Positions 748-2,345 of a stretch of DNA of 64,000 bases are shown in pieces; positions within the stretch are counted from its first letter, which is position 1, and every line of letters starts with the position of its first letter. Origin of the DNA: Cyanobacteria bacterium P01_D01_bin.156. Lineage in GTDB: Bacteria > Cyanobacteriota > Cyanobacteriia > Phormidesmidales > Phormidesmidaceae. The translations under genes were made by a program, and so were the position numbers. The stretch spans positions 1 through 64,000 of the forward strand of contig JBCCQQ010000012.1 of the NCBI GenBank assembly GCA_039024555.1, given 5' to 3'. The notes beneath the pieces are model-generated. The model worked only from the letters and a program-made list of their open reading frames with translations, was not told the origin of the DNA and ran no database searches.

Positions 748-998
748 AAATTTGCTTGGATAAAAAATTTCCTAAGCCAGGAGAGACGTGGCTCTGGAGC
801 TGAGCACGAACCGTGTGTTCGATATCCTCCAAGCTATCCATCGGTAATCCGTTTACTTGAGCATCGTCATAGAGAATCTGTGCGATTGCTCGCACATGGG
901 AATCCAGTTGCTGATGGGTTTCAGGTGTCATGGCTGTGAACTGATAAAAACGCTACCATCTAGGATATTTTTTCTCTGATTAATGGATGACGTGCTCC
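748..998 (-). mobile_element. ISKra4-family element, left end and first transposase ORF (ATG at 931), interrupted by ISL3
   Basis: MTPETHQQLDSHVRAIAQILY...SLEDIEHTVRAQLQSHVSPGLGNFLSKQ resembles cyanobacterial ISKra4 ORF1, including the GGAAATTTTTTATC slippery site (~768-782). The left boundary near 998 is approximate. Confidence 0.7.
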
Positions 999-1897
999 CC
1001 TAACTGCTCTCCAGCCTTGTCCAGATACTGGTCAATTTGCTTCGGGATCAAGGGCTGGACGTAAATGGCGCTGCGTAGCCTCAATCGTTCAGAGAGGGCT
1101 TCATAGTCGTGAACGCGGCTACACACAACCATCTCAGTTCGGCCATGAGCTTGAATAAACTGATTCAAGGCTTGTACGCAAGCATTCCTATACTTCGCCT
1201 CAACCTCGTCCAGCCCATCTAATAACAGGATTAATTGCTCTTCCTCAATCCAGATTTTTCCTAATGATTTCGAGACCTGATAGATCTCATAAAGCTCCTG
1301 AGCTAGCCAATCGCCGATAGATTTCCGTTGCTTAGCCCAAGACGATAAGTTCACTACCACTGGCAAAGGCTGACTTAGGTCATTCTCCGTACGAGCAATC
1401 AGGCTTTCCGCTAATTTCAGCAGAGTCACCGTTTTACCAGAACCCGGTTCTCCTAAGATCAACAGCGTACGACCGGCTCCTATATCTTCAAAAATATCAG
1501 CTGCCGCTGTTCCCTCTGGAAAAACTTGCCCAGGGTTTGACGGAAACTCTTCTACCTTCTCTAAAGGGTTCTGAATATATTCGTTTCGGTCTTCTAATCC
1601 CAGCTCGATTAAGACTTGCATGTGCAGCGATTTCTTTAGAACCCCATCAATCCAGGATTGTTTAACCTTATCAAGTAGGACTTGTCGCCATCGGTACTCT
1701 TGTTGATTGATTTGTTTAGCAGTGCTCAAGGTAGCCTGATCTACCTGAACAGACTCATAGACATTCGTGACGTAAATACGTTGCGTCTGATTAACCGTCA
1801 GATCACTCCCGGCAATGCCGCCAATCTGAACATTCTCAAGGATGCTGTTCGAGATGTTCAAACTTTGATTGGGCTGCTGAGGGGGTGGCTGAGTCAT
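980..1897 (-). pseudogene. NACHT (STAND/NLR-like) NTPase with N-terminal RHIM-like motif, truncated by IS insertion
   Basis: Walker A GEPGSGKT, PLPVVVNLSSW, Walker B LLLDGLDEV, VVCSR. It ends abruptly after DKAGEQL at the ISKra4 boundary. Confidence 0.85.
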
Positions 1898-1910
1898 GAC
1901 TGTGCTGATC

Positions 1911-2345
1911 TCAAATCAGGAAACTAGTAGCAACCCCCAACCATGGGCTGATAGTTTCCAAAATAGGTTTTACTTTCTGCCAAAGGCTCGTTCCAGCTTC
2001 TACCGTCTCACCCGCTTCCTTCAATACCTTGGTGGCCCTTTGCAATCTCTTAGCCGCAAATTCCTTATCTGGCTCTTCAGCCTGGGCTTCCTCTTTGACT
2101 GTTTCTAGATGCTGAATAGCCTTCGTCTTTTGACTGTCCGGTAATACGGAGTTGCTGAACAGCTGCTCTAGCTGGGAAATTAGGTCAATGACATCCGCTT
2201 GAGAAAGCGGGGATCCTGAGGTATCCGCACCAACCTGCTGGGTTTGGGTCACCGTCTGGTCACGACCAGCCAACCCGCCAATCTGGACATTGGAAATCTG
2301 TCCGCCACTGATATGGATAGATTGGGGTGCTTGTTCCTCTGCCAT
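1911..2345 (-). CDS. Small protein: N-terminal RHIM-like motif plus C-terminal alpha-helical domain (candidate NLR-partner effector)
   Basis: GGAGG RBS upstream of ATG 2345. The N-terminus SIHISGGQISNVQIGGLAGRDQTVTQTQQV is shared with the downstream NACHT. Amphipathic helical C-terminus (LWQKVKPILETISPWLGV). Confidence 0.8.
   Translation of the reverse strand: MAEEQAPQSIHISGGQISNVQIGGLAGRDQTVTQTQQVGADTSGSPLSQADVIDLISQLEQLFSNSVLPDSQKTKAIQHLETVKEEAQAEEPDKEFAAKRLQRATKVLKEAGETVEAGTSLWQKVKPILETISPWLGVATSFLI

Follow-up and report, generated by a model that had tools for sequence, protein, structure and literature searches.

Why do a small protein and the NACHT NTPase encoded next to it share one short N-terminal motif and nothing else? 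The question is raised by two adjacent genes near the beginning of the window, i.e., the whole stretch of 64,000 nucleotides analysed here, which is the first 64 kb of contig C12 of the 6.6-Mb genome of Cyanobacteria bacterium P01_D01_bin.156. The upstream gene encodes a protein of 144 amino acids (aa), for which Pfam and NCBIfam scans yielded no family, and the downstream one encodes a truncated NACHT protein. The motif recurs in gene pairs of related loci, where its type changes in both partners together. Based on sequence comparison and structure modelling, we propose, with a probability of about 0.55, that it couples a sensor NTPase to the small helical-domain protein, most likely by cross-beta templating, and that the signal would end in membrane attack by the released C-terminal helix of the small protein.

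A motif common to two neighbouring proteins

In a BLASTP comparison of the two proteins, residues 9–38 of the small protein and 12–41 of the NACHT protein alone align, with 17/30 identical and 23/30 positive positions (E = 2e-8). This bears out an earlier note, made from the letters of the window, which had described an N-terminal motif shared by the two proteins (18/31 identical residues in its register, beginning one residue earlier), unrelated remainders, and a NACHT gene lying 13 bp downstream of the small gene on the same strand; the coordinates of the open reading frames (ORFs) agree with the latter. The codons differ at 11 of the 17 identical residues, and the nucleotide identity is 52/93. 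Such divergence of codons argues for conservation at the protein level and against a recent copying of DNA.

The consensus of the motif in the small-protein family is SQSISISGGQLSNVQIGGxAGRDxxxxQxQQIG (alignment A1, 26 sequences), and that of 16 NACHT N-termini is LNISxSxLExVQIGGIAGRDLxLTQIQ. AlphaFold2 (AF2) leaves residues 1–44 of the small protein unstructured (pLDDT < 50). A complex prediction for two copies of NACHT residues 1–55 and two copies of small-protein residues 1–50 scored 0.03, compared to a mark of 0.32, which speaks neither for nor against an interaction.

Conservation of the gene pair

As the earlier note had proposed, we searched homologous loci with a hidden Markov model (HMM) of the motif. 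Only the small proteins contributed motif columns to the model, which was applied to all ORFs of the 16 public loci that contain a relative. In 13 of the 16 loci (L001, L003–L013, L015), a co-oriented ORF starting 10–330 bp downstream matched at its N-terminus (residues ~1–46), the spacer being 10–16 bp in most homologous loci. The NACHT proteins of the window and of the locus on contig C1 of the same genome are matched as well, and 15 of the 17 downstream or adjacent ORFs scanned encode NACHT proteins. Contig C1 has an intact pair, with the small gene at 22485–22916 and the NACHT gene at 20402–22468. A six-frame scan of the whole 6.6-Mb genome with the same model produced seven matches at E < 1e-3, the next one having E = 0.82. 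These seven are three small proteins and four NACHT genes, every one of the latter situated beside a small gene or its remnant. The motif sharing and the pairing are far beyond chance.

Two of the remaining loci encode the motif in another arrangement. In L002 (plasmid pREB6 of Acaryochloris marina), it is present at 7431–7545, cut off from the ATG by an in-frame stop (MSEQSK*PSKQSINFSGG...). In L016, a 507-aa protein without a known family carries it (5251–6774), and the gene of that protein is transcribed divergently. A stop at the corresponding place (MSEVPIPFPS*SLNILGS..., L010:972–1030) was also observed in the NACHT frame of L010, which in addition has an internal deletion fusing the pre-NTPase region to the conserved tail. 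The stops in these two unrelated loci could reflect recurrent inactivation, an alternative start, or sequencing errors.

Two further genes of the same genome are worth mentioning in this context. An intact gene for a motif-bearing NACHT protein of 756 aa (C1:71149–73419, L028) is directly preceded by a remnant of a small gene with five stops within the match (C1:70880–71137); by its sequence, this locus appears to be a second decayed module. On contig C17 (71560–74253, plus strand), an 897-aa protein has an N-terminus that resembles Ser/Thr kinases by sequence motif, followed by a region 35% identical to residues 61–751 of a paralogous NACHT protein with a membrane region. It may be an "all-in-one" form in which a kinase replaces the motif.

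Motif types co-vary between partners

The helical domain of a divergent small-protein paralogue from contig C34 of the same genome was searched for in 401 genomes of the phylum and found in 28. Eighteen of these matches have E ≤ 1e-11; the other ten are weak, come from one family of ~2-Mb genomes, and were left out of the locus comparison. In the enlarged set of loci, the region before the helical domain falls into several motif types, and the neighbouring gene carries the same type. The VQIGQAG type is exemplified by L068, with ...SHVQIGQAGSDLTQNQ in the small protein and ...REAQIGQAGNDLQQIQ in a 927-aa NACHT protein, the respective cores being IGQAGSDL and IGQAGNDL; L040 is alike. Small proteins of the VVQQAQAGRD type (L067, L043, L045, L042) have NACHT-like partners beginning with ...S(V/I)QQxQAG..., so that in L067 and L045 VVQQAQAGRD faces an IQQAQAGRD-like segment. 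The third type consists of octad repeats VQGDNNxA. On contig C34, it is found in the small protein (NIVQGDHNQTVQGN) and in its NACHT partner, which has a membrane region (NIAQGDHAHTLQGN). In L066, VQGDNN octads occur on both sides, the partner being a 368-aa iSTAND protein (PF19995) followed by genes for a MoxR-like AAA protein and a GUN4 protein. Octads are also present on both sides in L058 and L060–L062, where the partners have ~360–400 aa; the two of them that were scanned (L061, L062) are FGE-sulfatase proteins. The octad type weakly matches the beta-roll family PF21300 (E = 3.4e-5, below the cut-off), which points to stacked beta rungs.

To quantify the co-variation, we took the best 16-residue gapless match of each gene pair, summed these scores over the pairs, and permuted the partners 20,000 times. 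For 30 pairs, including three non-matching ones (L059, L065, L044), the observed score is 1441 versus 953 ± 68.5 after permutation, and 0/20,000 permutations reach it. When a single member stands for the VQIGG subfamily (18 pairs), the score is 783 versus 518 ± 49, again with 0/20,000 permutations reaching the observed value. As related loci are not independent, the significance is overstated in both cases; the switches between classes are plain by eye.

Several octad-type loci contain longer proteins. In L059–L062, proteins of 701–745 aa (e.g., L062:6940–9114, minus strand) combine pentapeptide repeats, the octad motif, and the C-terminal helical domain; in three of the four (L060–L062, not L059), a protein with an N-terminal motif is encoded next to them, and further on in L062 there are a P-loop AAA-like gene, as judged by sequence, and a 966-aa ORF. 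A 676-aa NACHT protein with an N-terminal octad-type motif (NVVQGDSNRTVQGQGNQAIIGDNN) is encoded on contig C6 of the window's own genome (86039–88069, minus strand; 4039–6069 of L064), and no ORF of at least 100 aa upstream of it matches the helical-domain profile. This suggests that the C6 protein might signal in trans to the matching small protein on C34.

The helical-domain family

A word-indexed search retrieved 129 relatives of the small protein at E ≤ 0.01 among 178 candidates. Nearly all of them have 141–149 aa; the named source organisms are all cyanobacteria (Symploca, Acaryochloris, Dolichospermum, Nostoc, and others), and several of the genes reside on plasmids. In the 26-sequence alignment, the motif is followed by a variable linker and a conserved region of ~100 residues ending with ...LWxKVKPILETxxPWLGVAAxFLI. 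Trp122 is invariant and Trp135 is conserved in at least 90% of sequences in A1, while W78, W91, L92, and G93 reach at least 90% in alignment A2. The AF2 model (mean pLDDT 69.4; 71–89 in the helical blocks) has helices at 49–65, 70–87, 94–114, and 116–136, followed by a short terminal turn at 140–143. The last helix is moderately amphipathic (hydrophobic moment ~0.4), and hydrophobicity along the protein peaks in its final 12 residues (<H> = 0.62). Model, alignment, and hydrophobic moment thus agree with the order of parts given in the earlier note, i.e., a motif N-terminal to a helical domain whose last helix is amphipathic and contains Trp.

The domain profile built from A2 matches 536 representative proteins (clusters at 50% identity) at E ≤ 1e-3, and 266 at 1e-10, among 1.84 billion. 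Architectures were counted for 150 listed representatives of the 536; in 135, the domain is preceded by 30 or more residues. Its end lies at most 10 residues from the C-terminus in 134 of the latter. The 35 residues preceding the domain contain 13.6% G, 12.4% N, 14.9% Q, and 11.9% S; G/N/Q/S/T together make up 58% and K/P/L 7%, compared to 26 and 27%, respectively, inside the domain, and 123/135 members have at least 45% G/N/Q/S/T in this segment. A G/N/Q-rich segment directly before the domain was seen in most of the 53 members inspected.

About half of the listed representatives have ~140 aa, and the others have 200–730 aa. In 30 longer members scanned, pentapeptide repeats (10), TIR (3), and CHAT (2) domains were identified, as well as one case each of AbiTii, TRADD-like N, PMT_2, and Roc-COR; nothing known was found in 11. 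The motif is internal in the TIR-motif-helical and pentapeptide-transmembrane-motif-helical fusions, and the TIR fusion P0129 bears the motif type of the window.

The helical domain of the window protein matches the C-terminal ~110 aa of the PADLOC candidate defence protein PDC-M14B (E = 1e-10), and so do the domains of all motif types (E from 1e-10 to 6e-7). Profile positions 153–264 of 267 are covered, the first ~150 positions being unmatched; our literature search found no mention of PDC-M14. In structure comparisons, Foldseek gave no match to the Protein Data Bank (PDB) at E ≤ 1e-3, and a wide search with VIA-align returned generic four-helix bundles only, the top one being YicC (8ver), with a Z of 11.4 that is unremarkable among helical bundles. 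The ESM Atlas matches are unnamed cyanobacterial clusters, apart from a lead to TCAD2 (PF19971; score 0.89), for which Pfam scans of 26 family members brought no confirmation. Two other candidates were set aside: a PDB-sequence profile match to 9hnh_A (E = 3.4e-4), which we regard as spurious since it consists of three weak repeats with the best i-E of 1.4, and the "Goodbye" domain of fungal STAND proteins, whose matches in 4/26 members are too weak to use (best E = 0.007).

Partner proteins

The motif-bearing partners comprise NACHT proteins with a membrane region, NACHT proteins with a Tll0287-like part, iSTAND proteins followed by a MoxR-like AAA gene, FGE-sulfatase proteins, and two proteins without a known family. 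Intact partners of the first class have 3–8 strongly hydrophobic Gly-rich windows of 19 residues between residues ~410 and 680, and after the membrane region they share a conserved tail, ...PWNYARFLDYAxERLFLQKVGGGYIFxHRMLLEHFA. Because we take this tail to resemble the end of the NACHT winged-helix region, the membrane region looks like an insertion before the conserved tail of the NACHT module. In the AF2 model of a 689-aa paralogue from the same genome, a confident NTPase core is accompanied by long helices at 409–645, and the N-terminal residues 1–64 are unstructured (pLDDT 25–31). No repeat-type sensor domain was found in the intact partners of this class (e.g., the L025/A4 proteins), which represent an unusual STAND architecture.

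The non-NTPase partners bearing the motif include proteins of 281–288 aa (L026:2749–3615; L046) and the 507-aa protein of L016. The 288-aa and 507-aa proteins had no match in Pfam and PADLOC, nor the latter in NCBIfam; that these partners act as sensors is a guess.

Relation to known signalling systems

The tetrad (I/V)Q(I/V/L)G is the core of the RHIM motif of RIPK1, RIPK3, ZBP1, and TRIF, and the earlier note had for this reason called the shared motif RHIM-like. The V-Q-I-G of both window proteins does fit the core tetrad of RHIM, fungal PP, and BASS3 motifs. However, the flanking glycine of the G-phi-Q-phi-G signature is replaced by N, T, or E (N-V-Q-I-G in the small protein), neither window protein matches the Pfam RHIM family (PF12721) at E ≤ 1, and [IV]Q[IVLC]G occurs in 12/135 family members, with the full signature in 1/135. 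Since the tetrad is that infrequent, VQIG is a trait of one subfamily and not of the system, and the RHIM label should be dropped.

Amyloid signalling from an NLR-like sensor to a helical membrane executioner is established in fungi and, since 2020–2024, in bacteria. All amyloid-signalling effectors described to our knowledge carry the motif at the C-terminus; the present family suggests that the same signalling logic probably exists with the opposite polarity. By sequence and by analogy, it might work like three groups of known systems, namely, Bell/BASS, Bab/Agp, and EAD.

The Bell/BASS systems are similar in several respects. There, likewise, the gene of an NLR-like NTPase is directly preceded by a collinear effector gene; a G/N/Q-rich beta-prone motif of ~25–30 residues is present on the effector and at the NTPase N-terminus; and the effector forms a small bundle of helices, one terminal helix of which is hydrophobic. 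Both kinds of systems occur in cyanobacteria. BASS motifs have been characterized as ~25-residue segments rich in Q, N, G, V, and I and poor in K, P, and L (Dyrka et al., 2020, 10.1101/2020.01.06.895854), a composition that the present motif shares, with the segment left unstructured by AF2. Two features, however, separate the family from Bell/BASS: the position of the motif and a helical domain without detectable similarity to Bell. The motif is C-terminal on Bell effectors, whereas here it is N-terminal (residues 9–39 of 144) or internal in fusions, standing directly before the C-terminal domain in all representatives inspected; accordingly, the hydrophobic helix is N-terminal there and C-terminal here. 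The inverted architecture that the earlier note had suspected is supported, and it is the property of a conserved two-gene module. The partners also differ, being NB-ARC or NACHT proteins with TPR or WD repeats in Bell/BASS systems, and NACHT proteins with a membrane region, iSTAND, or FGE-sulfatase proteins in this family. As described in the source, the BASS screen looked at effector C-termini only (Dyrka et al., 2020), and hence a layout with an N-terminal motif was outside its scope. Our literature search found no N-terminal-motif effector of this type, although one may be listed in supplements under another name.

Amyloid signalling has been proven in anti-phage abortive infection by the E. 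coli Bab/Agp system (BASS11; Ibarlosa et al., 2024, 10.1101/2024.11.07.622273). As presented there, this system also consists of two genes, and a shared motif of ~20 residues passes activation from the sensor to a small helical membrane-targeting executioner; as here, the partner need not be an NLR. For BASS11, fusions of the motif to GFP have been shown to form heritable foci. In Bab, the helical domain is N-terminal and the motif C-terminal, opposite to the present order, and Bab/Agp is proven by experiment, whereas our family is known from sequence and predicted structure.

EADs, as described by Kaur et al. (2020, PMC7159879), have one copy on a core component and another, N- or C-terminal, on an effector encoded by an adjacent gene, with adjacent copies being more alike. 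The present motif follows the same rule at the level of motif classes. The cast of partner domains coincides too (iSTAND, MoxR-like AAA, FGE-sulfatase/FGS, GUN4, pentapeptide, TIR, CHAT, and TRADD-N), and EAD systems are likewise enriched in multicellular cyanobacteria. In contrast to the disordered low-complexity motif of our family, the EADs of that description are small domains with an alpha or alpha+beta fold, and the main text of the source nowhere uses the word "amyloid" (Kaur et al., 2020). No Pfam EAD (at E ≤ 1), bDLD, or TCAD family matched the motif or the helical domain.

Proposed mechanism and alternatives

We suggest the following sequence of events. The upstream gene would supply the disordered G/N/Q/S-rich beta-prone motif joined to a C-terminal four-helix domain, the last helix of which probably inserts into the membrane together with its hydrophobic W...PWLG tail. 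The downstream gene would supply a NACHT NTPase that begins with the same motif and, when intact, has a multi-pass Gly-rich membrane region. Upon a trigger, the NTPase would oligomerise, and its clustered N-terminal motifs could adopt a stacked cross-beta fold (a beta-arch or a beta-solenoid). By direct binding, this amyloid-like fold might template the matching motif of the small protein, whose assembly would free the C-terminal helix into the membrane and cause abortive cell death, presumably in defence. Overall, this is the logic of Bell/BASS or HET-S/NWD2 with the polarity of the effector reversed. The effector-like role is ascribed to the motif-plus-helical unit because this unit is constant, while the sensor-like partners vary.

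Several observations weigh against this mechanism. The hydrophobic tail of ~12 residues is short for a transmembrane helix, and the helical domain has no detectable link in sequence or fold to Bell, HeLo, or MLKL, none of which is among the listed fold matches; a distant relation is conceivable. Its fusions behind TIR and CHAT domains, effectors themselves, mean that the helical domain may not be the killing part, and the NACHT partner, having its own membrane region, could be the effector. The downstream NACHT protein of L014 resembles the motif of its neighbour weakly (7/24 identical, rank 7 of 16), and L059, L065, and L044 have no matching neighbour. Besides the dependence of related loci mentioned above, the own partner is not the best match within the VQIGG subfamily (ranks 2–13 of 16): the motif of this subfamily is too conserved, so that specificity is visible only between motif classes.

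A broader form of the proposal is tentative, and we lean against it at present. It holds that the motif with the helical domain is a widespread, undescribed "mirror-Bell" death effector (the 536 clusters), switched on by prion-like beta-solenoid templating from any sensor with a matching motif, the same plug fitting membrane-embedded NACHT proteins, iSTAND/MoxR ternary systems, and FGE-sulfatase (C-type-lectin-fold) sensors. If true, amyloid templating would stand beside folded EAD- and Death-like adaptors as a general wiring principle of multicellular cyanobacterial conflict systems, and N-terminal or internal motifs, which the field has regarded as exceptions until now, would serve it as well.

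Alternatively, and as the chief competing explanation, the motif could be a plain homotypic adaptor of the EAD type that acts by finite beta-augmentation or oligomeric docking, with the helical domain recruited as an effector or co-effector and no amyloid templating involved. The EAD principle (Kaur et al., 2020) fits the observed layout of motifs and their matching by class, and the iSTAND, MoxR-like, and FGE-sulfatase partners belong to the same conflict systems. We nevertheless consider this explanation unlikely, as the segment in question, 58% G/N/Q/S/T and unfolded in AF2 models, differs from the described EADs, which are folded, and it matches no Pfam EAD family at E ≤ 1, while the weak PF21300 match of the octad type hints at stacked beta rungs.

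An exchange of roles, with the membrane region of the NACHT protein acting as effector and the small protein as a regulator that caps or holds the NACHT N-terminus through the shared motif, much as an antitoxin or a decoy would, seems clearly less plausible. It would agree with the 3–8 hydrophobic segments (~410–680) of intact NACHT partners that lack a classical repeat sensor, and with the first place of the small gene in the operon, common among antitoxins. It is difficult to reconcile with the pairing of the module with soluble partners lacking a membrane region (iSTAND, FGE-sulfatase, NACHT + Tll0287-like), with its fusion behind TIR, CHAT, and AbiTii domains, and with the occurrence of both partnerless small genes (L065) and a NACHT gene without a small gene (that of contig C6).

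It is very improbable that the motif acts as a common signal for some third component, be it a protease, a chaperone, or an export or membrane-targeting system: both window proteins do have it at the N-terminus, where low-complexity tags often serve targeting or processing, but it is internal in the TIR and pentapeptide fusions, and its type co-varies within pairs while the loci share no conserved third gene. That low-complexity N-termini merely resemble each other by chance, or stem from a functionless local duplication, as the shortness and biased composition of the segments might suggest, is hardly credible given the BLASTP E-value obtained with compositional adjustment (2e-8), the pairing in 13/16 loci, a genome-wide scan that matches module genes only, and the diverged codons.

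Compared to known amyloid-signalling systems, cross-beta coupling of this kind would be new in its different helical domain, perhaps in several motif types, and in partner classes not yet tied to amyloid signalling (NACHT with a membrane region, iSTAND, FGE-sulfatase), and the finding widens the range of places where such systems should be sought. A 144-aa protein and a peptide of ~30 residues offer an easy experimental handle, and the family lends itself to asking whether it matters for effector activation at which end of the helical bundle the amyloid is attached.

The window copy and its genomic context

Coordinates of the module and of the adjacent features are listed in Table 1. The small gene has an alternative GTG two codons upstream that would yield 146 aa; in the alignment of 26 sequences, homologues begin at the ATG.

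Table 1. Features at the start of the window (positions in nucleotides of the window).
Feature	Position	Strand	Details
Small gene	1911..2345	minus	ATG 2345, stop 1911–1913; 144 aa + stop; appears intact
Motif in small protein, residues 9–39, SIHISGGQISNVQIGGLAGRDQTVTQTQQVG	2229..2321	minus	BLASTP of the two proteins, codon comparison
C-terminal helical domain of small protein, residues 45–144, four helices	1914..2213	minus	AF2, domain profile
Last helix and hydrophobic tail, residues 116–144, ...SLWQKVKPILETISPWLGVATSFLI	1914..2000	minus	Near-invariant W...PWLG; alignments A1, A2
Spacer between small gene and NACHT gene	1898..1910	minus	13 bp
Truncated NACHT gene	980..1897	minus	ATG 1897, stop 980–982; 305 aa
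Motif in NACHT protein, residues 12–42, SLNISNSILENVQIGGIAGSDLTVNQTQRIY	1772..1864	minus	Small-protein-only motif HMM, E 1.9e-14
NACHT P-loop NTPase domain, residues 143–294	1016..1471	minus	Walker A GEPGSGKT; Pfam PF05729, E 7.2e-13
Flank in place of the NACHT 3' half	136..931	minus	78-aa ORF and transposase fragment, at contig start
78-aa ORF	695..931	minus	
ISL3-type transposase zinc-ribbon fragment	136..594	minus	Pfam Zn_ribbon_ISL3, E 1.1e-9
100-aa ORF without family	2348..2650	minus	Overlaps the alternative GTG start of the small gene
ParE-family toxin gene	2647..2973	minus	Upstream of small gene
HTH_3 gene	2954..3211	minus	Upstream of small gene
TrwC relaxase/helicase, 1144 aa	3613..7047	minus	~1.3 kb from the module
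Actin-like (ALP_N) segregation protein	7373..8509	plus	Weak match

The intact relatives of the window NACHT protein have 547–761 aa, compared to 305 aa here. It matches residues 13–300 of a 761-aa paralogue from the same genome (C1:18120–20402) at 74.7% and then ends, so that ~350–450 C-terminal residues of a complete NTPase module are gone. A whole-genome search found no match of comparable identity to the missing half elsewhere in the genome. Window bases 3–142 recur at the start of contig C75. A search of sequencing runs listed no RNA run for the sequence, and the three DNA runs listed belong to a single study. Since the NACHT gene lacks its C-terminal part, the pair in the window is probably non-functional, a degraded copy or remnant. 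The intact-looking small gene could still answer to paralogous NACHT proteins encoded elsewhere in the genome.

Directly upstream of the small gene and on the same strand, the HTH_3 gene, the ParE-family toxin gene, and the 100-aa ORF are arranged head-to-tail with mutual overlaps of 4–20 bp; they may constitute a toxin-antitoxin set co-transcribed with the module. The window begins inside a conjugative plasmid or an integrated element. Genes for TrwC-type relaxases are also located near the module in 3/30 related loci searched (L002, L003, and that of contig C1), and contig C124 contains ORFs resembling ParA and primase, as judged by sequence motifs alone. Given these neighbours, the family appears often to ride on conjugative plasmids or integrated elements, and its frequent association with plasmids and relaxase genes hints at a part in conflicts among mobile elements.

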